This document shows positions 16,750 through 51,994 of a stretch of 64,000 nucleotides of DNA, piece after piece. Location of the stretch: UHGV virus genome UHGV-1364441. One strand, written 5' to 3'. The stretch comes from a virus. The position numbers and the translations under genes are program-made. Under the pieces are notes generated by a model, which did no database searches, was not told the origin of the DNA, and saw nothing but the letters and a program-made list of their open reading frames with translations. Position 1 is the stretch's first letter. Each line of letters opens with the position of its first letter.

Positions 16750-16795
16750 GTTGGCTGCCTCTTACTTATCAGCGATTTTTTTATGATTGATCATC

Positions 16796-16830
16796 TTTGT
16801 TAGATATTCAAAATTGATTTTCTAACATAA
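16796..16830. promoter_or_regulatory. Operator-like inverted pair TTGTTAGA-N15-TCTAACA upstream of the Ref-like gene
   Basis: Read directly, 45-80 bp upstream of start 16749. Confidence 0.5.
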
Positions 16831-17022
16831 AACATTAATATCAGTCGCTGTTTACTGTTTGGAGGACATGATGCTTATAGCCTTAAGTGCGATCCACCAG
16901 CCACCTGTGAATGAGATCGGCCTGTTTTATGTGCTGTTTTTCGGCGCGTTGGCGCTACTTGAGCTTGGTATTGAGCTTTTTGCAGTGCTTATGTTTTGCG
17001 TCACGATGCTGGGGAAATTTTG

Positions 17023-17646
17023 ATGGTGAAACGTGTTTTGAAAATTTACATCGCGGGTCCGATGACTGGTTATCCAGATTACAACCGCGCGGCGTTTAAT
17101 GCGAAGGCGAGTGAGCTGACGGCTGAAGGGCATATCGTTCTGAATCCAGCGGTGTTACCTGGTGGCCTTTGTCAGAGTGAATACATGGATATTTGCCTGG
17201 CAATGGTGCGTTCTGCTGATGCTATCTATCTGCTTAAGGGCTGGGAAGCGTCCGCAGGAGCACGAGCAGAACACGCCCTGGCTGAAAAACTGGAGCTGAC
17301 GGTAATTTATGAAGCGCCATCTGACACAGATTGCAGAATGGCAGCGCATATTTACCGCGAACTGGTCGATGCGTTACGTGATGTTGCTATTGAATGTCAC
17401 GGCACGGATCAGCTTCGCGCTCGCTTAAGCAATACCCTTTCCAGTTACCTGTCTTTAGCCGAAGGATACAACCTCCGACAGCGGAGAATGGTCAAATTAA
17501 TCACGCGTTTATCTCAATCCCTGGCAAATGCCGAACCAACTAATCCGCTACCTAATGACGCAATGAATTATCTGAAGTCATGCGGCGTTGTTTCTGAAGA
17601 TGCAGTTCGTTTTGTGGAGTTTATGTCTCAGAGGATGTCGGCGTGA
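17023..17646 (+). CDS. DUF4406 / nucleoside 2-deoxyribosyltransferase-like protein
   Basis: KIYIAGPMTGYPDYNRAAF ... NPA ... AIYLLKGWEASAGARAEHALA pattern; ATG 17023 preferred over track TTG 16996. Confidence 0.65.
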   Translation: MVKRVLKIYIAGPMTGYPDYNRAAFNAKASELTAEGHIVLNPAVLPGGLCQSEYMDICLAMVRSADAIYLLKGWEASAGARAEHALAEKLELTVIYEAPSDTDCRMAAHIYRELVDALRDVAIECHGTDQLRARLSNTLSSYLSLAEGYNLRQRRMVKLITRLSQSLANAEPTNPLPNDAMNYLKSCGVVSEDAVRFVEFMSQRMSA

Positions 17647-17960
17647 GCTGGCGGGGATGGGGAAGGGCGGAAATCATGATACTCCGCCAGTGCGCCGGAA
17701 CTATGACAGTCGAGACTATTGGGAGACTGATCGGACGTACCGGTGGCGCAGTCAGGACTAAAGCGCGGCAACTGCGGATCAGCATGATTCTGAAAGGAGA
17801 CTTTCACCAGTCAGCCAAATACCGGCAGAGCGATATAGAACTGGCGCGGCAGCTTCATCAGTGTGGTGTTCCCCGCCGTGAGATCGCAGAAAAACTCGAA
17901 ATGCCCCTGGGAATGATTAATCAGTACGTTTATTTCGAAAGGAGAGTGCATGAAGTCTGA
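17643..17960 (+). CDS. Small HTH DNA-binding protein
   Basis: Two HTH-like segments; GTG start overlapping the upstream stop. Confidence 0.45.
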
Positions 17961-18312
17961 AGGTTTAACGCCCGCACAACTGGCAGAGCGTAACGCTGAA
18001 TTACCCAGGATTACCCAGGAAAAAGCCTTCCACATACTCGAACGATTAGAAACGCTCGCTACGGAGGAGAAGATATCCCCGGAGATGCTGGTCGAGTGCA
18101 GCCGTGTGATATTGCGTCGCAAGAACGACATCGCGCGGCTGACATCTGGCGCACCATCCGTATCAGCCAGTCCAACGCTTTATTGCAGCTTCTGCAACAA
18201 ATCCCAGCACACCGTTAAAAAGTTAATTGCCGGGGACAACGTTTTCATCTGCAACGAGTGCGTGAAAGATTGCAACAACATTATCCAGGAAGAGCAAAGG
18301 GAATCAGCATGA
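17950..18312 (+). CDS. Protein with C-terminal ClpX-type C4 zinc-finger domain
   Basis: [39 protein letters not shown] closely parallels the ClpX N-terminal zinc-binding domain; no AAA+ module follows. Confidence 0.65.
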
Positions 18313-19025
18313 AATTTTCCAAATTTTCTGAGTTGGTGAATCGTATTTTGTCCAACAACCACAGCCATCGTCGCGATATGGATGTAACGATCGTTGTTCA
18401 TTCGCCTGGCAGCATTGGTTCAACACCTTCAGTTGAGGTTCAGTCAATTCACGCTGGTTTTGATTGGGATTCCGGGAAAGTGCTGATTTTCCCAGCACAG
18501 CCACTGACCACGCTAACACCAGAACAGATTACTGATATCACGGATAGTGTGCGCAAAGGTCAGTCTTGGCACGCATATCAGGAATACAAGAAGCATAAAG
18601 AGCAGTTGGAAAAATTATCGATTGAACTTGATGCCGCAAAACAGCGCATTGCAGAACTGGAGAGCGAACGCGTGGTGCTGGCGGCGGAGAATGTGGAGCT
18701 GAAGTCTGTGCACCCTCAACCATTCGGAGCTGAGATGATGAAGGCTCTTGATGCGTATGAGAAGCATCAGGATGAAGTGCCAGAGACAGGAATGCTCAAT
18801 GCATTTTTCATCTTGCGCGACAGCATCCGTGTTGAAACCCCAGCCACCGACGCTTTCCTGGCTGAAGTGCGTGCGCAGGGGGTAGAGATGTACGCAGATA
18901 ACCTCGACAACGCAGCAGACGACGCAGAACGAGGTGGTTTTGATTATGCCGTTAAGTTTCTACGCAGTGAAGCGTCTGGTGTACGTTTGTTCGCCGACCA
19001 GCTTCGCAAAGGAGGCAACCAGTGA
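18309..19025 (+). CDS. Coiled-coil protein sharing a C-terminal [11 protein letters not shown] block with the 22301-22999 product
   Basis: Start at ATG 18309 (ATGA overlap with upstream stop). Confidence 0.5.
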
Positions 19026-19826: not shown

Positions 19827-20515
19827 TCCAGGCTCTGCATGAAGTGAATTTATATAGCCGTATTGATGGTTCAGGCTACAGAAACATATGGGTTGTTGGT
19901 GATTTGCACGGTTGCTACACCCTACTTATGAATGAACTCCATCGTGTGGATTTTGACCCGACACAGGATTTACTGATATCGGTTGGCGACCTTATCGATC
20001 GCGGCGCCGAAAATGTTGAATGCCTGGAGCTATTGCAGATGCCCTGGTTCAGGGCAGTAGTGGGGAACCATGAGCTGTTGATGCTCGATGCGTTAAGTCC
20101 TGATGGCAACGTGAATAACTGGCTAATGAATGGCGGTCAATGGTTCTTCATGCTGGACGCTGATCAGGAAATATTAGCCAGGGCGCTGGTGGAGTTGGTA
20201 AGACGACTGCCCTATATCATTGAGTTGAACACCGGGCAAGAAACTATCGTTATAGCCCATGCCGACTATCCGGATAATGAATATCAATTCGGTAAGGAGG
20301 TGCCGCTTTTCAACGTTGTCTGGGCGCGCGAGCGTATCAGTGATTCGATAGATGGCATTGGTGGAGAAATCACAGGCGCAGATCGCTTTATCTTTGGGCA
20401 CACACCGGTACGAAGACCAAAAGCATACTGGAATCAGCACTACATAGACACGGGCGCGGTTTTTTGCGGAAATCTGACGCTAATGCAGGTGAAGGGAGGA
20501 CAGCTTAAAGTCTGA
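19823..20515 (+). CDS. Serine/threonine protein phosphatase (lambda PP / PrpA-like metallophosphatase)
   Basis: GDLHG, GDLIDRG, GNHE motifs; ATG 19823 overlaps upstream stop. Confidence 0.85.
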
Positions 20516-39519: not shown

Positions 39520-39595
39520 TGGTGGCCCCTACCGGACTTGAACCGGTGACCGTGCGATTATGAGTCGCCAGCTCTAACCACTGAGCTAAAGGGCC
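39520..39595 (-). tRNA. tRNA-Ile2 (anticodon CAU, lysidine type) or tRNA-Met-like
   Basis: Manual fold: 7-bp acceptor stem, CCA encoded, anticodon loop CUCAUAA; close to E. coli ileX; one mismatch at the base of the anticodon stem. Confidence 0.75.
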
Positions 39596-39604
39596 AGATT
39601 ACTG

Positions 39605-39733
39605 TTAATTCCGCTTACGCTTTTTGCCAGAACCGCGTAAGGCTTTTGCCGCTTGCTCGATCCCATATGCAACCACCAGCAGAAATAAAAATGTCCAACC
39701 AGGGTTCTTATCGGCAAAGGCCCAAAAATCCAT
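39605..39733 (-). CDS. Possible 42-aa membrane peptide (MDFWAFADKNPGWTFLFLLVVAYGIEQAAKALRGSGKKRKRN)
   Basis: Own translation; one TM helix plus basic tail; weak RBS. Confidence 0.25.
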   Translation of the reverse strand: MDFWAFADKNPGWTFLFLLVVAYGIEQAAKALRGSGKKRKRN

Positions 39734-40007
39734 CACTTGCAGCTACCTTTTAAGACAAAACGCCATTGCTGTTAGATTGCGGTGCCTGGTGCCTCCAGGT
39801 GACGTTAACCAGTTAACAATTAACGCCGGGATGTTTGACTTCACTATTGAGGAAAATTGTTTTAACTGTTCCGCGTGCGCTTAGCCGCATTCACCGCAAT
39901 GGTAAGAGCACTTGGCTGGCTGGGCGGCGATGACGCCTGTACGCATTTGGTGATCCGGTTCTGCTTCCGGCATTCGCTTAATTAGCCAAATACTCTTAAC
40001 GTTGCGC

Positions 40008-40094
40008 TGGCGGAGAGTAATGGAATCGAACCATCATCGCTTGCGCAATGGGACGGTTTTCAAGACCGCTTGAGCACCATGCTCCCTACTCTCC
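40008..40094 (-). tRNA. tRNA-Ser (anticodon UGA), type II with long variable arm
   Basis: Manual fold: 7-bp acceptor, 3-bp D-stem, anticodon loop CUUGAAA, variable-arm hairpin with GCAA loop, T-loop TTCGATT, CCA encoded. Confidence 0.65.
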
Positions 40095-40478
40095 GGCCGT
40101 TGTGGTGGCCGGTACTGAATCTCCGGCATACGGTGCAGCCAATTAGGACTACGGACGATCACCGCTCGCGAAAGGGAAGGTTTGCGGCCGCATTTCCCTA
40201 ACATCCAAGAAAGCTATCGCATCAGTCTGCGAATCCACCACAACGTTGAGAACACTGGTTGTCACGCTGCAACGCAACATTTATTCGTAGATTGGGATAT
40301 GACCCCGTTACGTCAGTGTTCTCAACGTTGTAGTACCGGTTACGGTTCCGGCCAGGCCTCTTCCTCAACGGGGTATTCTCCATACGGACTACCGTTTATT
40401 GGTCGTTCCTGCGGTTTATGTTGTGAAGCCAGATGCTTATCTTCTGGTTGCTTCAAAGAGCTGCACTTCATCACAACG

Positions 40479-40552
40479 GTAAGGGTACTTCGTAGGGATT
40501 CGAACCCTCTGCCAAGCACGGCGATCTCCGACGTCGCAAAATACCCTTACCT
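40479..40552 (-). other. tRNA-like fragment or structured element (T-arm-like GGGTTCGAATCCC inside a 10-bp closing stem)
   Basis: Does not fold as a canonical cloverleaf (no D or anticodon arm in register, no CCA). Confidence 0.3.
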
Positions 40553-40559
40553 GTTGTGT

Positions 40560-40635
40560 TGGTGCCGATTAACGGACTCGAACCGCTGACATCCTGCTTA
40601 CAAGGCAGGCGCTCTACCAACTGAGCTAAACCGGC
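40560..40635 (-). tRNA. tRNA-Thr (anticodon UGU)
   Basis: Manual fold: canonical cloverleaf, anticodon loop CUUGUAA, CCA encoded. Confidence 0.85.
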
Positions 40636-40637
40636 AT

Positions 40638-40714
40638 TGGCGATGGTGGGTGGATTCGAACCACCGACCGACAGCTTAGAAGGCTGCTGCTCTATCCTAC
40701 TGAGCTACACCATC
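40638..40714 (-). tRNA. tRNA-Arg (anticodon UCU)
   Basis: Manual fold: canonical cloverleaf, anticodon loop CUUCUAA, CCA encoded; 2 nt from tRNA-Thr. Confidence 0.85.
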
Positions 40715-45154: not shown

Positions 45155-48100
45155 TTAAGCCGCATCGGCGATTATTTTACGTAGTTCATCTACCGAGTAA
45201 CGAGTAGATACCATCCATGCCGGACGGTCAAAGTTCACATCAGCAACCGGGTTTGCTTCAAAATTCCAGAAACGCCCGCCAATCTTCTTAATCGCGTCCT
45301 TGGCGTTCCGTATTGTCGAGGAACCTGGCTGATCGGCAATGAGATAAACGGCACCCACATCTTCACTGACACTCCACCAGCGCCCGCGAACACGGGCTTT
45401 AGCGCGAATCGGCTTATCATTAACCACAATGATATAATCATCGTTCGCAGCTTCTTCAGCTCTGGCTTCAGCCACTGCCGCCTGCTCTTCTCTTTTGCTT
45501 TCAGCCTGCTCAAGTCTTTCTGCGATCTCTGATTCGGTGGCTCCGCCGTTTTTCAGCGATACATAGTCTTGCCACGTTGCCGATTTGAGCGCATCTGGTA
45601 ACTCATTCACATAGTCCCCGTCTTTCAAAGCTCGAGCACGGCGGACAGCCATTTCGACCAGGCGGTTAACAGAAACAGCATCAGCAAAATCGTCCTTACT
45701 AATGTGTTTTTCATCAAATGCATTGATGACAGCCCCCACCTTAATCCACTGTGCTGCTGGCGAATCCAGAGGATTATCGGCCTGAACAATGGCTAATTTC
45801 GCTCCATCGACACCATTATTAGCCAGCTGCTCCAATGCCGACCAGCCATCGGCATCGCTGAGTGATTTATATTGCTCAAACAATGCATCGCGCCAGGCCA
45901 CCAGCGCAGCTCGTGTTTTCTCAATTTTCGCCGTAATTTTCGCGGCCTTCACCTGATTAAACATCCGTTCAATGTCATCAGTGTTGCTAAAGGCTTTCAT
46001 CCTGCCCTGGAATAAACGGTATGCCACCACGGTCTTCCAGAAAGATTCCAGCCCTTCTCCGGACGGTTTACGGAACAGGCTAAGAATATCTTCAGAAGTA
46101 ACTTTATTAAGTGAGCGACCGGACAAACCACGCCCTGCCATCCAGTTTTCAAACTCCTGGGAAACATCATCCATCGTGGCCTGTGACCCCCATGCCTGCA
46201 TTCCCTGGATGTAATCATATCCATACAATGCCTGGAGGAATCCCTCGCCGTCCACGACATTCAGCGGGTTATCACTGGCTTGTATTTTTGCCACTTCACG
46301 CTTCAGCGCCTCATCGTTGCCATCAGGGTAAATCCACCGCTCAGGCGCTATATCCGATGCTCGCCCGATTTTTTGACCTATTACGCCATCATAAGCCGAT
46401 GACAGTGCAATCTGACCATCATCGGTGCGATAAGCCCAGTATTTAATAGCTGAACCACCGCCCCATACTCTACCAGGCTTCCCGGCAGTGACATTCATTA
46501 CCCCATTGCGAATAGCATCATAGAACTGATCGCGCGTAAGTGTTGTTGATAGCTGGTGGCATTGAACACCACGTGCAGCTGTTTCACGCGATTCTGCAAC
46601 TCCCTCTTCAAAGGTTACCGATTCAATTATCAGGTTAAAGGGCAAAAATAATGCCGTCCCCGGAGAACGAGAGTAACGACTAGCCACATCCAGCCAGGAT
46701 ATGCGGCACGTACACCCGCCCCTTTCCGCATCAATGGCGGTAACACGAACAATTGCTGTCGTATTGTGATTCTCATCGATGATCGCGCGATAATGGCTGC
46801 CCTTGTGCAACAAGATATTTTTCTCAGTGCGTACATACTCCTGTGGGTTCTGCAATACATCGGCATCAAGCTCCAGAACCCCGGCTTTAATCGCACGTTC
46901 CAGATCACCACGAGAACGTTTCATAACGGTGTCAGCGTCTTTAGCTCTGGTGATCGCAAAGCGTAGCTCCCGCACACGTTTTCTGTAGTCTCGCAACTGT
47001 TCCAGAACATATTTCTGCCCGTTCCTGTTCGTCCCCGCTTTAATCAGGTCGTCAAGATTGCGCTGGTAATGCTCTACCTGCTCCATCGCGCTTTTCAGTT
47101 CTGTCTCCATCATGCCGATATCTTTCCCGGCAGCATTCGCCGCTTTCAGGTAGTTATCGAGAGCATTATTGGCTTCGCGTAGGGCTTTCAGTTTCAGACG
47201 TTCTTCACGCTCTTGCGCCTGACGACTCATGATTGCACGGCGTTCTTCCGGATTTGCCGCCAGCATAATGGCGCGTTCATCTGCGTCATCCGCATCACCA
47301 TTGGCGATCTCTGACATGTCGGAGGTCATCACCATATTGATCCAGTCCTTCTTACGTTTCAGCGTATCCAGACGGAAGTCATCAAATGTGCCTTTGCCAC
47401 AATAGTAGTGAACATTGACCTTTTCTTGTGGTGAGCCTACCCGAGCGCCGCGCCCATTACGTTGGTCGATACTGGCAGGAGTCCAGGGTAGTGTCAGATG
47501 GTGGATATCGGTTGTCCCGATGTGCAAGTTAATACCTACTTCAGCCTTCTTGTTACAGATTATGATGCGCGTGCGACCTTCGTTATAGTCGGCGGCAATA
47601 CCTTCCATGCCCTCAAGGCCAGCATCATTTTTAGCTGAGAGATAATCCTCATATTGGGCAAGTTTGCTGTAGTAGGTTTCCCATGCACCTTCTTTGTATT
47701 CACCGTTTTTATTTGGCGTAGGTTCAGTCGGCTTATTCACCTTCTTCAGCTTGACGCCGCCAGCCTGGCTAACTGTCGTCGCATTGATAATGCCTATCTC
47801 CTGCTCCGGCATTTGCAGTGCACTGGCAATAATACGGCGCAGCTTCTGGTGCTGGGCTTTTTCATCAATGAAGACGATTTGTTTACCGTTCTTCAGACCT
47901 TCACGAAGGTTTTCGATCAGCGCGGCATACTTCGGCGGGATGGGGTGTGATACCTGCTGCATATCAATACCGGCAGCCGCAATGGCCTTCAGTATTTCAG
48001 CTTCCAGTTCAATGCCAGCACGTATTTCAACATGCGACGGATGTTCGCTAAAGGTGGTCTTCACTACCTTGCTGGTACGCGTACTGACCAGCCCACCAGC

Positions 48101-51100
48101 GCCATCTTCTTCGGCCTCGTCTACATCATCTGCCACTTTACCGCCAGCTACTTTTGGCAGGGCATCAGCAATAGCTTTTACCTTGTCTGCAAGCTCAACG
48201 GGGAACTGGAATGTAATCGCACTGGCATACAGATCAGGATCTATAGCAACCTTATCCATGTCGCGGATGATGGAGAAGATGAAATCATCCGGTTTTTCGT
48301 TTGTGATATGCCCGTTTTCATCGACCGTCAGCGCATCTTTACTACTTAACTCCTGTGCACGCTTACGAAGTTCTTCGTAAATGGCCTCTTGCTCTCCTGT
48401 CATCGGGATCTGCAAGGTATTCTCGACAATATCAGGGATTTTTACCGTCGCCCCGACGTCCGCAGCAGTCTTCAGAGTAGTCCAGCGATGGAAAATACCA
48501 CGCAGACCATCCAGGTTCTGGAAGCCCACCAGTCCCTGCTTCTCTTCCACCTCACCGGAAATTTTCTGAACCTGAACTGTGGCTGTTTTACCGAACACGC
48601 GAACGAAATCATCCGGCGTAACAATACCCATGCGCATCCACTCTTCCTGCGGAATGACAGTAGACAGCATGTTGAAAGCATCAATCGGGCTGTTCACCAG
48701 CGGTGTTGCCGTCAGCATAACCACACCACGCCCGTTGTTGCGTTTCATCATGTACGCAGCTTTTACAGCCATGTCGCGGGCCATTTTGGATACTGCCGGG
48801 TTAGGCAAATATGCCAGTTGCCCCGCTTCGCGCCCGGCGCTAAAGGAGTTGCGGTAGTTATGCCCTTCGTCGGCAATTACGCTATCGAAGTTCATATCCT
48901 CAAAGTACGGGATATTCTGCTTCTTCGTTGTACCGGTATTTGCGGCCTGGTCCTTAATCTTGTTCTTCTTCTGCGCGTCACGGTGTTTGCCAGATGCCAG
49001 GTCAAGACGCCCCATTTCCACAGCATTAAAGACCGCTTGCTGTGAGTTTTCCTCAATGGTTTCTTCTCGTAGCGGGATAGACGCGAATTGCTCTTTTGTC
49101 ATGATGACCGTTCGCCAATTTGACGACGGGATCATGTTCATGCGCTGAACGATAACGGCGCTGGCGGACTCTTTCACAACATTTCTGGTAAGAGCCTGCC
49201 CGTTACTGTCGAGGCGTGGTTCGCCATTTTCATCAAGCACCGGCGCGGTCAGAATATTTCCGCTGTCATCACGAACTTCATCCAAACCGATAAACATCAT
49301 ATTGGCGAAGGCATCAGCACTGTAGAAACTCTGTGCCTCGTGATACCAGTTCTGATAAACCGCCTTCGGAACAACAATACACGTGCGTTTAGTGCGACCT
49401 GTTTCGAAGTTATACGCCTCAAGCGCAAGCGCGGTCGTGGTTTTACCCAGCCCGGTGCCAAATCCCATGATGCCGCGCCCATCTTCTGATAAGCGACGAA
49501 CTTCTTCATTCTGATAAGTCAGAGGAATGCGCTTCCCACTAATCCCCTCCAGGCCAAGCGGTGCGTCAGAATGCGTAAACGGGATGAAGCCATTAAATGC
49601 GTCGTTATAGTCGCGGGCTATCTGATCAGCCTGCGGGTGAGTGCGTAACCAGTCGTTGAAGCTAATTTCCAGTTGAGCAATCTTATCCAGGTACTCGTTA
49701 GCGTTCTGCCCACGCGGTTTAATGCCGTTCAGGTAGTTTTCTAACTGGTTCAGGAAGCCGTCTTTATTGTTGGCCTTCTTGAACTCATTCCCGTTTTTGC
49801 CGTTTACGGTTCGTAGTTGATAGCCAGTAAATACCCCGTCCTTACCTTCGTAATCGTCCGGAGATACCAGAATGCCGTCCTCAACCTTAAGGTCGGGTTC
49901 TGTATACTTAAACTCGTCATAGCCTTGCTCTGCCAGGAACTCTTTTATCAAGCGGCGATCCAGCCAGCGGGCGTTCAGATTAACGGTGACTTTATTTAGT
50001 GGCGTGAAAATGCGTTTCTCTTCGATTTTCGCCAACTGACGCTCAAAGTTCGCTTTCTGCTCACCTGTTGACGCATCACGCCAGCCCACCAGCAATGCTG
50101 TTTTGGTTGCAATATCGCCGCTGGTGGCGCGGTCCATAGGCAGCAGGCAGCCATACCCATCAATAGCGATATCATCAAATTTCGCCAGGTATTCCAGAGC
50201 AGCATCGTCGTCTCCTGGCAGTTCGCCAGCAAACGCCTCACGAAAATAGTCCAGTGTGATTGGATTAAGTGCCACGTCACTGAAAAGGTGGGTTACAACT
50301 TGTTCCGGGCGTGTAAAGTCAATACCGGCAGCACCATCCGTTACATCAAGTCGTCCAGCAAGGAGGTCAGAAGCAGAGCCGTCCTGTTTCACGTTGCCAG
50401 TGAAAGTCATCCAGTTTTTAGCGCCAGCTTCAGCAATCCCATTCAGCTTAATCGCGTGCGGCGGACCATACTTCGCAATTTCGGCTTCCGCCAGGCGCGC
50501 GGCATCAGCAAGTTCATCATCAACATTTTCCCCCAGATTACGCTTATCAAGCGCCTTGTTGATCAACTGCCCTATCAGTGCGCCGCGCATAACGCGTTCT
50601 CTGTCTTTTTCTCTCTGCTTGCCAGCAAAGCGAATCATTGCCGCTACTTCATCACTGATAACCGACGGATAGTCGGACGCGATCGCCGATATCTGGTCCC
50701 ATGACAACGCCAGAATGCCATTTGTTGACTGAAACGCGATCTGCAGATCACCAAACGTCGTAACACCATATCGATTTACATCAAGCGCGGAGGATTTGGT
50801 TGTCGCGTCCTTGACCCATTTCAGACCATCAAACTCATGCCAGATGCCGCCTACAAGGCGTTTATCGCCCACTTTCGCGCCCTGCCATGCCTGAGTAGTT
50901 ACGCCAAGCAAATCCCAATTAATGCGGCTTTCAAAGCGGCGCGATAGAGCGGTTTTCATCGACTCATTGGATACACGACCGTCCTTTTTCACCACCAGGG
51001 TATTGCGGAAGCTGGTACGCTCCATATCGCCGTAAACAAATCGCTTCCCTTCGGTTGTAAACCATTTCCCTTTGAGGAAGGTATCCCAAAGGACGTTTGC

Positions 51101-51994
51101 CGACTTGAGCGTTGCATCATCCGTGTCGGGGATCATCTCCAGGAAGGTTTCCGGGTGTTTACGCAATACCCATACGTCCACCACTGTATCTGTACCGGAT
51201 TCGCTGAACGTACCAGAAGGCATACGATGTGCGCCCAAAAATTCCGCTTTACGGCTGACTTTATCGCGCAATTTTTTGTATTTCGTACCATCGGTCATGC
51301 CATTCGGCACCACCAATACAATTAGTCCACCAGGCTTAACCTTGTCGATCGTGCGCAGCACAAAATAATTGCCAACGTTCTTCTCGTTTGCATATGCCGG
51401 ATCAAGCCCGGCGACACCGGAACGCCCTTCGCCAAACGGTACGTTACCAACAGCATGGTCATACATTGCGTCTTTCGCCGCCAGAGCTTCAAACGCCCCG
51501 ATATTCACATCGTCTTCCGGGTGCAAAAGCTGGTTTATTCGACCGGAAATCGGAGACAGTTCGGCGCTGGTCATTATCATGCCCTGCCGTTTTGTCTCCT
51601 GGAAAATACCTGTGCCCGCTGATGGTTCCAGTACGTGCCCACCATCAATACCGTAGTCAGCAAACAGATCCCATATACCTTCAGCCATAAACTGTGGCGT
51701 GTAGTATTCGTATTGGCTGCCCTCACCATCTGTCAGGCCACCTTCACCGGTATACCCGGCAAGAATCTGACGTTGTTCGTCAGTTAATTTCGCCCCATCG
51801 AAGCCGGGCGGAAGGGAATTAAGAAGATTTACTGCGGCATTGTTTGCTGCCCGGCGTGTTTTCTGAATACTGACGCCATCGGCTTTCCTGACGCCAAAGG
51901 TCGCAACAGCACGTAATTTATGCAACCGACTAACAATTTCAATCAGTTCGCCTAAGCTGGAGGCTTCACTGATTGAATGAAGTAGTTTGTCCAA
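45155..51994 (-). CDS. darB: DarB-like giant anti-restriction protein: N6-adenine methyltransferase plus SF2 (DEGH/SNF2-like) helicase, 2279 aa
   Basis: SAM-binding LEPSAGTG, NVPFG motif, helicase Walker A GTGLGKT, DEGH box, LTATP, QRNGRGAR; size matches P1 DarB. Confidence 0.8.
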   Translation of the reverse strand: MDKLLHSISEASSLGELIEIVSRLHKLRAVATFGVRKADGVSIQKTRRAANNAAVNLLNSLPPGFDGAKLTDEQRQILAGYTGEGGLTDGEGSQYEYYTPQFMAEGIWDLFADYGIDGGHVLEPSAGTGIFQETKRQGMIMTSAELSPISGRINQLLHPEDDVNIGAFEALAAKDAMYDHAVGNVPFGEGRSGVAGLDPAYANEKNVGNYFVLRTIDKVKPGGLIVLVVPNGMTDGTKYKKLRDKVSRKAEFLGAHRMPSGTFSESGTDTVVDVWVLRKHPETFLEMIPDTDDATLKSANVLWDTFLKGKWFTTEGKRFVYGDMERTSFRNTLVVKKDGRVSNESMKTALSRRFESRINWDLLGVTTQAWQGAKVGDKRLVGGIWHEFDGLKWVKDATTKSSALDVNRYGVTTFGDLQIAFQSTNGILALSWDQISAIASDYPSVISDEVAAMIRFAGKQREKDRERVMRGALIGQLINKALDKRNLGENVDDELADAARLAEAEIAKYGPPHAIKLNGIAEAGAKNWMTFTGNVKQDGSASDLLAGRLDVTDGAAGIDFTRPEQVVTHLFSDVALNPITLDYFREAFAGELPGDDDAALEYLAKFDDIAIDGYGCLLPMDRATSGDIATKTALLVGWRDASTGEQKANFERQLAKIEEKRIFTPLNKVTVNLNARWLDRRLIKEFLAEQGYDEFKYTEPDLKVEDGILVSPDDYEGKDGVFTGYQLRTVNGKNGNEFKKANNKDGFLNQLENYLNGIKPRGQNANEYLDKIAQLEISFNDWLRTHPQADQIARDYNDAFNGFIPFTHSDAPLGLEGISGKRIPLTYQNEEVRRLSEDGRGIMGFGTGLGKTTTALALEAYNFETGRTKRTCIVVPKAVYQNWYHEAQSFYSADAFANMMFIGLDEVRDDSGNILTAPVLDENGEPRLDSNGQALTRNVVKESASAVIVQRMNMIPSSNWRTVIMTKEQFASIPLREETIEENSQQAVFNAVEMGRLDLASGKHRDAQKKNKIKDQAANTGTTKKQNIPYFEDMNFDSVIADEGHNYRNSFSAGREAGQLAYLPNPAVSKMARDMAVKAAYMMKRNNGRGVVMLTATPLVNSPIDAFNMLSTVIPQEEWMRMGIVTPDDFVRVFGKTATVQVQKISGEVEEKQGLVGFQNLDGLRGIFHRWTTLKTAADVGATVKIPDIVENTLQIPMTGEQEAIYEELRKRAQELSSKDALTVDENGHITNEKPDDFIFSIIRDMDKVAIDPDLYASAITFQFPVELADKVKAIADALPKVAGGKVADDVDEAEEDGAGGLVSTRTSKVVKTTFSEHPSHVEIRAGIELEAEILKAIAAAGIDMQQVSHPIPPKYAALIENLREGLKNGKQIVFIDEKAQHQKLRRIIASALQMPEQEIGIINATTVSQAGGVKLKKVNKPTEPTPNKNGEYKEGAWETYYSKLAQYEDYLSAKNDAGLEGMEGIAADYNEGRTRIIICNKKAEVGINLHIGTTDIHHLTLPWTPASIDQRNGRGARVGSPQEKVNVHYYCGKGTFDDFRLDTLKRKKDWINMVMTSDMSEIANGDADDADERAIMLAANPEERRAIMSRQAQEREERLKLKALREANNALDNYLKAANAAGKDIGMMETELKSAMEQVEHYQRNLDDLIKAGTNRNGQKYVLEQLRDYRKRVRELRFAITRAKDADTVMKRSRGDLERAIKAGVLELDADVLQNPQEYVRTEKNILLHKGSHYRAIIDENHNTTAIVRVTAIDAERGGCTCRISWLDVASRYSRSPGTALFLPFNLIIESVTFEEGVAESRETAARGVQCHQLSTTLTRDQFYDAIRNGVMNVTAGKPGRVWGGGSAIKYWAYRTDDGQIALSSAYDGVIGQKIGRASDIAPERWIYPDGNDEALKREVAKIQASDNPLNVVDGEGFLQALYGYDYIQGMQAWGSQATMDDVSQEFENWMAGRGLSGRSLNKVTSEDILSLFRKPSGEGLESFWKTVVAYRLFQGRMKAFSNTDDIERMFNQVKAAKITAKIEKTRAALVAWRDALFEQYKSLSDADGWSALEQLANNGVDGAKLAIVQADNPLDSPAAQWIKVGAVINAFDEKHISKDDFADAVSVNRLVEMAVRRARALKDGDYVNELPDALKSATWQDYVSLKNGGATESEIAERLEQAESKREEQAAVAEARAEEAANDDYIIVVNDKPIRAKARVRGRWWSVSEDVGAVYLIADQPGSSTIRNAKDAIKKIGGRFWNFEANPVADVNFDRPAWMVSTRYSVDELRKIIADAA

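Follow-up and report, generated by a model that had tools for sequence, protein, structure and literature searches.

A standalone ClpX-type zinc-binding domain protein of D6-like phage-plasmids and P2-like prophages, a possible decoy for ClpX ligands

A small gene ends in a ClpX-type zinc-binding domain

We analysed a stretch of 64,000 nucleotides from the virus genome UHGV-1364441 (the window, to which all positions below refer unless another locus is named) and describe here one gene on its + strand. The 120-residue product carries, at its C-terminus, a zinc-binding domain (ZBD) of the kind that ClpX has at its N-terminus, preceded by a predicted helical hairpin found in one family of proteins only. 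The gene and its parts are as follows.

17950-18312, + strand: standalone ClpX-ZBD protein gene, complete and with its stop codon; ATG start, 120 amino acids (list of open reading frames (ORFs) and sequence)
17940-17944, + strand: Shine-Dalgarno sequence AGGAG, 5 nucleotides upstream of the ATG (sequence reading); identical in phage D6 ahead of orf91
17950-18009, + strand: leader of 20 codons, D6 orf91-type, outside the core family (comparison with D6 orf91 and E. coli genomes)
18000-18019, + strand: recombination junction, 10-bp tandem duplication ATTACCCAGG/ATTACCCAGG (sequence and three-way comparison with D6 orf91 and orf93)
18010-18144, + strand: orphan N-domain, residues 21-65, predicted helical hairpin (AlphaFold2 (AF2) model and 31-sequence alignment)
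18145-18177, + strand: Ser/Pro/Ala linker, residues 66-76, predicted to be flexible (predicted local distance difference test (pLDDT) scores of 64-70, no secondary structure; length and sequence variable among homologues)
18178-18294, + strand: ClpX-type C4 ZBD, residues 77-115 (profile, PDB, AF2 and tblastn matches)

The gene looks real, since it has the AGGAG sequence, starts and stops that overlap with those of its neighbours, and a ratio of nonsynonymous to synonymous substitution rates (dN/dS) below 1 in nearly all pairs for which it could be estimated.

The original prediction, an ORF at this place with a C-terminal ClpX ZBD, is borne out by several searches. Residues 77-115 match the Pfam family zf-C4_ClpX (PF06689) with E=1.3e-17 and 63.8 bits, against a gathering cutoff of 27, over positions 2-39 of the 39 in the profile, and no other Pfam family is matched at E<=1 anywhere in the 120 residues. 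A sequence search of the PDB returned ClpX chains only, the best being the isolated E. coli ZBD (1ovx and 2ds5, E ~1e-15). The domain is identical to that of E. coli ClpX at 28 of 40 positions (70%), and tblastn with the E. coli ZBD as query finds it in the window at 18178-18303 (E=1.9e-17). The zinc ligands of ClpX (C14, C17, C36 and C39, spaced CxxC-x18-CxxC) correspond to Cys79, Cys82, Cys101 and Cys104, encoded at 18184-18186, 18193-18195, 18250-18252 and 18259-18261. All four are kept in the 22 family members compared (22/22) and are invariant in the 31-sequence alignment. Scanning the whole window for CxxC-x(14-24)-CxxC in frame within a real ORF returned this gene only.

An AF2 monomer model was made from 31 family sequences (mean pLDDT 78). 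Across the blocks covering residues 81-110 of the ZBD the pLDDT is 82-90, and the domain is predicted to form a treble-clef with strands at 92-94 and 99-101 and a helix at 102-119. It superposes at 0.5-0.6 Å over 38 residues on 2ds5, 2ds6, 2ds7 and 2ds8, the last of which is a complex of the ZBD with the XB peptide, and all seven PDB matches returned by Foldseek at E<=0.001 are ClpX or its ZBD. A generic zinc ribbon, the alternative named at the outset, was ruled out by zf-C4_ClpX being the sole Pfam match and by LIM, PHD and ZZ fingers having E>0.4 in Foldseek. We conclude that the C-terminal domain is a true ClpX-type ZBD.

The protein is not a ClpX. The NCBIfam ClpX models (TIGR00382 and NF003745) match it only at positions 5-50 of their 414-418, with 43-47 bits against cutoffs of 359-371, in agreement with the earlier statement that it has no AAA+ module. 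An SspB-type XB tail (LRVVK-like) is absent from the protein, which ends ...IQEEQRESA, and no XB-like motif was found in the last 20 residues of any ORF of the window, where it was sought as a possible built-in ligand.

The ZBD is joined to an orphan helical hairpin

The N-domain is predicted to consist of two helices, 23-39 and 44-65 (~17 and 22 residues), with a pLDDT of 84-93 for residues 21-50, and is followed by a Ser/Pro/Ala-rich linker of ~11 residues that leads to the ZBD. In the 31-sequence alignment E40 is invariant, and T38, E39, R56 and R57 are nearly so; T38-E39-E40 make up an acidic hairpin tip, and a basic LRRK patch is conserved.

The N-terminus had been described as 80 amino acids long and unrelated to known proteins. 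Its lack of relatives stands, and its length does not: it comprises 76 residues, of which the first 20 are a borrowed leader. No Pfam relative of the N-domain was found (best E ~0.002, to inconsistent families), nor any in the PDB by profile (best E 0.37), and structural searches of the PDB and BFVD gave no significant match beyond the ZBD. When the N-domain alone was used as a profile against 1.84 billion representative sequences, 16 matches were obtained, all from this family, and every full-length one ends in a ClpX ZBD. As the N-domain is confined to the family and always comes with the ZBD, and as both domains are under selection (see below), the ZBD appears to be integral to the function of the protein.

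The gene in the window has a mosaic start

Canonical members of the family have 102-113 amino acids and start with MTTSHSAIT(Q/E)EKAF. The window copy starts differently. From 17930 to 17999 it follows the start of D6 orf91 almost base for base and then diverges, and from 18010 on it follows D6 orf93 from codon 8. D6 itself has the order orf91, the Ea22-like orf92, and orf93, which is the ZBD gene. In E. coli genomes, many plasmids have nucleotides 1-50 of the gene in front of Ea22/Eae-type genes that are unrelated to it, and nucleotides 61-363 recur as a ZBD cassette. On this three-way comparison the window copy is an in-frame deletion-fusion, in which a borrowed leader has been joined to codon 8 of the family gene, and the 10-bp duplication at 18000-18019 looks like the scar of an illegitimate recombination that removed, relative to D6, the rest of orf91 together with orf92.

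The fused form is common, so that it is not an artefact of assembly. Four sequence clusters of this form (P0001-P0004) hold 57, 98, 17 and 4 members, the representatives of P0001 and P0002 being 96% identical to the window protein, and several plasmids carry fused copies at 99-100% identity, including one, at 100% nucleotide identity, whose product is named 'ClpX C4-type zinc finger protein'.

The element is related to phage D6 and the gene lies in a packed operon

The surrounding 5 kb of the window share 90% identity with Escherichia phage D6, which is a plasmid prophage related to P1, and 94-96% with many E. coli plasmids of ~90-93 kb. The gene order also matches D6: ref, a small membrane ORF, DUF4406, the helix-turn-helix (HTH) protein, the ZBD gene, Ea22-type genes, DUF4752 and ppp. 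By this identity and gene order the element is a D6-like phage-plasmid, as the original prediction of a P1-related phage-plasmid had it. The further rationale drawn from P1, that such elements need ClpXP for antitoxin and repressor turnover, finds no support here. We found no phd/doc homologue in the 64-kb window with approximate query sequences, and no match to the P1 C1-operator consensus anywhere in it; ppp is the only part of this stretch that P1 and P7 share, and the ZBD gene is missing from both; and the family is centred on P2-like phages.

The genes on either side are:

17643-17960, + strand: upstream gene, HTH 'DNA-binding protein', same operon (weak Sigma70_r4_2 match); a neighbour, not a conserved partner
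18309-19025, + strand: downstream gene, 238 amino acids, function unassigned; its start overlaps the ZBD-gene stop; a neighbour, not a conserved partner

The 3' end of the HTH gene reaches 11 nucleotides into the ZBD gene, whose TGA stop shares ATGA (18309-18312) with the ATG of the next gene. Both overlaps belong to a tightly packed string of + strand genes that runs from ~16870 to past the ppp phosphatase gene at 20515 and is probably translationally coupled. The HTH gene is absent beside the P2-like homologues.

Two genes upstream of the ZBD gene (16996-17646) lies a DUF4406 gene, nucleoside deoxyribosyltransferase-like, and another is found in the early region of a P2-like prophage with a distant member of the ZBD family (locus L012, 282-587). 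This co-occurrence probably comes from accessory cargo common to both, not from a functional link.

The family is centred on P2-like prophages and is under purifying selection

The protein belongs to phrog_6797 (E=1.3e-54, residues 16-119 on profile positions 3-106 of 107), which PHROG labels 'unknown function'. Full-length homologues are 56-96% identical to it. A word-indexed search of 5.8 billion proteins gave ~30 full-length clusters, from Escherichia or Salmonella wherever an organism was given, below which came only ClpX or its fragments; distant clusters with organism names add Yersinia enterocolitica and Serratia. These hosts are as stated in the cluster names. A pattern scan for the N-domain in one genome per species gave no confirmed locus. 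Older NCBI annotations call family members, D6 orf93 included (locus L001, 5960-6280), 'carboxylate--amine ligase', a name with no support in the sequence, and newer records use 'ClpX C4-type zinc finger protein'.

By blastn with 11-nucleotide words the gene was present in 246 of 5,426 complete E. coli genomes (~4.5%), at 196 plasmid and 103 chromosomal places, and the carrier plasmids include those of clinical and livestock isolates. A second plasmid/phage group has records of ~106-111 kb, for example PhiR41_1 and CMS-2020a. P2-like prophages house every divergent member that we examined, in the interval that separates gpA (replication) from gpQ (portal), and by these loci they, not P1-type plasmids, are the main and most diverse home of the family. 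The gpA-gpQ interval is a hotspot of variable cargo that holds old, tin and many defence systems (Rousset et al., PMC9122126). The locus table of that study contains 'StbA + Plasmid_stab_B + zf-C4_ClpX + hypothetical' arrangements, of which we found no mention in its main text. In P88-type P2-like prophages we likewise see a ParM/StbA and Plasmid_stab_B partition module directly upstream of the ZBD gene (locus L003, 4439-5714; locus L010, 2662-3937). Such a module is odd in an integrating phage and may point to a plasmid-like stage; apart from P2-like prophages, the ZBD family occurs on two kinds of plasmid prophage.

The genes next to the ZBD gene differ between D6-like plasmids, the ~108 kb plasmids and P2-like prophages, and since they vary with the setting, the gene appears to be an autonomous cassette with no obligatory partner. 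A conserved partner gene or operon was looked for and ruled out, the proteins encoded immediately downstream of the D6-like and P2-like homologues being unrelated. PADLOC-DB v2 returned 0 families for 10 proteins (the ZBD protein and its neighbours).

Pairwise dN/dS is 0.1-0.5 in most comparisons of either domain, indicating that both are under purifying selection. Over deep divergences the ZBD has changed less than the N-domain, with a dN of 0.2-0.4 against 0.4-0.95.

Most ligand-contact residues of ClpX are retained, with variation in the family

The ClpX residues F16, A29 and Y34 are reported to be important for SspB binding (PMC3064785, which cites Thibault 2006). In PMC7804408, the hydrophobic F16/I46 region of ClpX is described as binding λO, trigger factor, SspB and RssB, and λO degradation as requiring the ZBD. 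The equivalents in the window protein are F81 for F16, A94 for A29, F99 in place of Y34, and I111 for I46. Comparing 22 family members with ClpX, we find that F16 is kept in all (22/22) and A29 in 15, the other seven having Thr. An aromatic residue occupies position 34 in 15/22 (10 F, 4 Y, 1 W), the other 7 having C, and position 46 is aliphatic in 21/22 (V in 12, I in 7, L in 1 and A in 1, with G in 1). Positions L12, Y13, F16, V24, I28, V33, I35, V40, N44 and I47 form a core that is near-invariant across ClpX and the family.

In deep members, which come from Salmonella and other hosts, the ZBD is still nearly that of the host (AGPSVYICNECVDLCN is one example; pattern AGPSVYIC...CVDLCN), identity being <=82% among the 22 scored. 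A recent capture from E. coli clpX is unsupported: blastn with 11-nucleotide words never linked the gene to clpX in the 5,426 genomes. The ZBD thus appears to be an old acquisition or an old relative.

The protein may act as a decoy for ClpX ligands

σS, SOS components, ssrA-tagged proteins, antitoxins, and the replication and transposition proteins of phages are under the control of ClpXP, whose clients are selected largely through the ZBD. The best explanation that we can offer for the phage protein, which we put forward tentatively, is that it is a decoy for the ligands of the ClpX ZBD. The phage domain would fold and probably dimerise like that of the host; its hydrophobic core positions are conserved, and the model is of a monomer. 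It would then bind the ligands of the host domain, such as the SspB tail, RssB, UmuD-type adaptors and λO- or MuA-like replication and transposition proteins, and hold the bound adaptors and substrates off the ClpX ring. The outcome would be a selective dampening of adaptor- or N-domain-dependent proteolysis by ClpXP that spares degradation depending on the pore only. The hairpin could add self-association, giving more ZBDs per particle and avidity for dimeric adaptors, or could provide a second binding specificity; the former would be the most economical addition to a decoy, and the latter is the alternative.

Direct experimental precedent comes from in vitro work with the isolated ClpX ZBD: supplied in trans at 5-20 µM, it inhibits the RssB-dependent degradation of σS by ClpXP, and it crosslinks to the C-domain of RssB (PMC7226468). 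A free ZBD in which the contact patch is retained should accordingly be able to draw adaptors and N-domain-dependent substrates away from ClpX by competition. By analogy, the in vitro result is the strongest external evidence for the decoy mechanism. The variable neighbours of the gene also fit an autonomous effector directed against a conserved host component. The original prediction had proposed modulation of ClpXP through competition for adaptors, and this is plausible by analogy with the free-ZBD precedent (PMC7226468) and with the F16/I46 patch (PMC7804408) being retained as F81 and I111. It had also named no described role for such a protein, and in keeping with this a full-text literature search found no paper giving standalone phage ZBD proteins a role.

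Several observations weigh against a decoy. In the precedent the ZBD was present at 5-20 µM against 0.6 µM ClpXP (PMC7226468), and so large an excess implies that a decoy would need high expression or added avidity. Promoter and terminator scans, of the ZBD gene here and of two P2-like loci, gave results at or below the shuffle expectation. Relative to ClpX, the ZBD of the window clade is changed at positions 18, 23, 31, 32, 34, 41, 42 and 45, L42 being Asp here, and its ligand specificity may no longer be that of ClpX. T29 and C34 mostly co-occur in one sub-clade, which may reflect an altered ligand preference or mere common ancestry. Among the closest relatives the dN/dS of the ZBD is 0.65-1.2, a noisy estimate from 39 codons. 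Finally, a pure decoy leaves the strongly conserved N-domain unexplained.

In a more far-reaching and more doubtful form, the proposal would be that temperate phages of Enterobacterales carry a dedicated mimic of the ClpX N-domain, which soaks up SspB, RssB, UmuD-type adaptors and N-domain-dependent substrates and so stabilises σS along with replication or regulatory proteins of the phage. Located in the gpA-gpQ hotspot, such a mimic might also exclude ClpX-dependent rivals (Mu-like) or blunt toxin-antitoxin defences triggered by ClpXP, and the hairpin would serve oligomerisation or a second target. If this were true, the family would represent a new class of modulators of protease specificity that imitate the client-docking domain of an AAA+ protease instead of binding the protease, and would be the first known phage factor to rewire ClpXP specificity via domain mimicry. 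As a genetic tool, it would also allow the two modes of degradation, N-domain-dependent and pore-only, to be told apart in vivo, and it could help explain effects of phage-plasmids and P2-like prophages on host stress physiology and their interference with competing phages. An effect on RpoS or SOS turnover, if any, would be epidemiologically relevant given the ~4.5% of complete E. coli genomes that carry the gene. Were ClpXP untouched, the protein would still be a case of the ClpX ZBD reused as a general interaction module. The domain and the family are already catalogued (the NCBI name, PHROG 6797 and the Rousset locus table). The architecture of a hairpin with a C-terminal ZBD, its restriction to temperate phages of Enterobacterales and the proposed mimicry mechanism are undescribed.

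Other explanations keep the link to ClpX or dispense with it. That the protein is a regulator independent of ClpX, with the ZBD reused as a zinc-stabilised module for dimerisation or peptide binding, would account for the variation at contact positions 29, 34, 42 and 46 in the family and for the place of the gene among early accessory genes, a kind that includes TraR-like proteins in lambdoid phages. In one version the protein would be shaped like DksA/TraR and might bind RNA polymerase; the layout of a hairpin with an invariant acidic tip, CxxC-x18-CxxC and a terminal helix seems to resemble that of such secondary-channel factors. However, Pfam gave no DksA/TraR zinc-finger match at E<=1, the top 50 PDB matches in Foldseek contained no DksA, TraR or Gre, and the helices, at ~17 and 22 residues, are shorter than the DksA and Gre coiled coils. 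The near host-identical ZBD of the deepest members is also hard to explain without mimicry of ClpX, and we consider this explanation unlikely. It is quite improbable that the protein instead hijacks ClpX as an adaptor, its ZBD heterodimerising with that of the host or riding on the hexamer while the hairpin binds cargo, so that a host or rival-phage protein is delivered to ClpXP or the N-domain layer is poisoned. A mixed dimer is sterically plausible given the near-invariant core residues of the small domain, the second conserved domain with its charged tip (E39/E40) and LRRK patch resembles a dedicated binding module, and hairpin and ZBD always co-occur. ClpX ZBDs are, however, described as constitutive dimers, and because their local concentration in the hexamer, where they pair, is very high, a free domain should exchange with them only inefficiently; crosslinking of the ClpX ZBD dimer is rapid (PMC7226468). 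As the neighbours are not conserved, the context also offers no candidate for the cargo.

The same ZBD-decoy chemistry might serve exclusion or counter-defence, the benefit being to block phages that need the ClpX N-domain, as in Mu-type transposition or λO turnover, or to prevent ClpXP-dependent activation of toxin-antitoxin or abortive-infection systems. The P2-like copies always lie between gpA and gpQ, a hotspot known to carry defence systems (PMC9122126), and zf-C4_ClpX arrangements figure in the Rousset locus table. Yet the main text of PMC9122126 makes no mention of a test of the arrangement, no PADLOC model covers the ZBD protein or its neighbours, and the hotspot also takes non-defence cargo, such as partition genes. 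The D6-like setting, moreover, is a long packed accessory operon beside Ea22, DUF4752 and Ppp genes and not a defence island. We regard such a role as rather remote. Finally, the foreign first 20 codons and the 10-bp duplication that marks an illegitimate junction could be read as signs of a mosaic remnant, an accidental in-frame deletion fusion with no selected function in this element. This is very improbable: the fused form is intact and common (P0001-P0004, and plasmid copies at 99-100% identity), it has kept a good Shine-Dalgarno sequence and the start/stop overlaps with both neighbours, and the core family is under purifying selection.

Comparison with known systems

The phage domain resembles the ZBD of E. 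coli ClpX in its C4 spacing, in ~70% identity over 40 residues, in its predicted fold (0.5-0.6 Å) and in having the equivalents of F16, A29 and I46, with Y34 replaced by F. It differs in position, standing at the C-terminus of a 120-residue protein after an orphan hairpin and without AAA+, whereas that of ClpX is N-terminal. Wojtyra et al. reportedly used purified ClpX ZBD as a competitor in trans in vitro in 2003. As purified ClpX ZBD in trans, a ZBD without the motor binds RssB and blocks RssB-dependent σS degradation (Micevski et al. 2020, PMC7226468), and the mechanism that we propose is the same. There, however, the ZBD was a laboratory fragment in large molar excess, whereas here it is encoded by a natural gene, has a further conserved domain attached and differs in its surface.

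The anti-adaptors IraP, IraM and IraD stabilise σS by blocking RssB, via unrelated folds. Like them, the phage protein would be a small protein acting at the level of the adaptor, redirecting ClpXP specificity without touching the catalytic machinery; unlike them, it would imitate the ClpX side and could affect several adaptors or substrates. No relation to the Ira proteins in sequence or fold was detected in the Pfam, PDB-profile and Foldseek searches. T4 PinA and T7 Gp4.5 inhibit Lon, and λ CIII inhibits FtsH. These too are small phage proteins aimed at regulated proteolysis of the host, but they bind the protease itself, whereas the ZBD protein would mimic a protease domain and bind clients.

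Other phage proteins carry a standalone ZBD without AAA+, among them phrog_12435, phrog_5259, a 65-residue 'Clp protease' of Pseudomonas phage PP9W2, and proteins of Caulobacter phage Cr30 and Bacillus phage G (gp258). The carriers of free ZBDs include Pseudomonas Mu-like and jumbo phages, with BFVD entries A0A9E7CCK4 and A0A1C9II97, and some are annotated 'Clp protease'. Unlike the present family, these proteins lack the hairpin N-domain, have a far lower ZBD identity (38-58%) and come from different hosts. Phages may make repeated use of free ClpX ZBDs.

Other features of the window

The divergent intergenic region between ref (- strand) and the accessory operon (+ strand) contains an imperfect inverted repeat at 16779-16839, with 26-nucleotide arms that are 73% complementary and include TGTTAGA...TCTAACA. 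This repeat may be a repressor operator. Four tRNA genes (Met-CAT, Ser-TGA, Thr-TGT and Arg-TCT) lie on the - strand at 39520-40714. Also on the - strand, at 45155-51994, is a very large ORF of 2,279 amino acids, reminiscent in size of the giant DarB-type proteins of P1-like phages.

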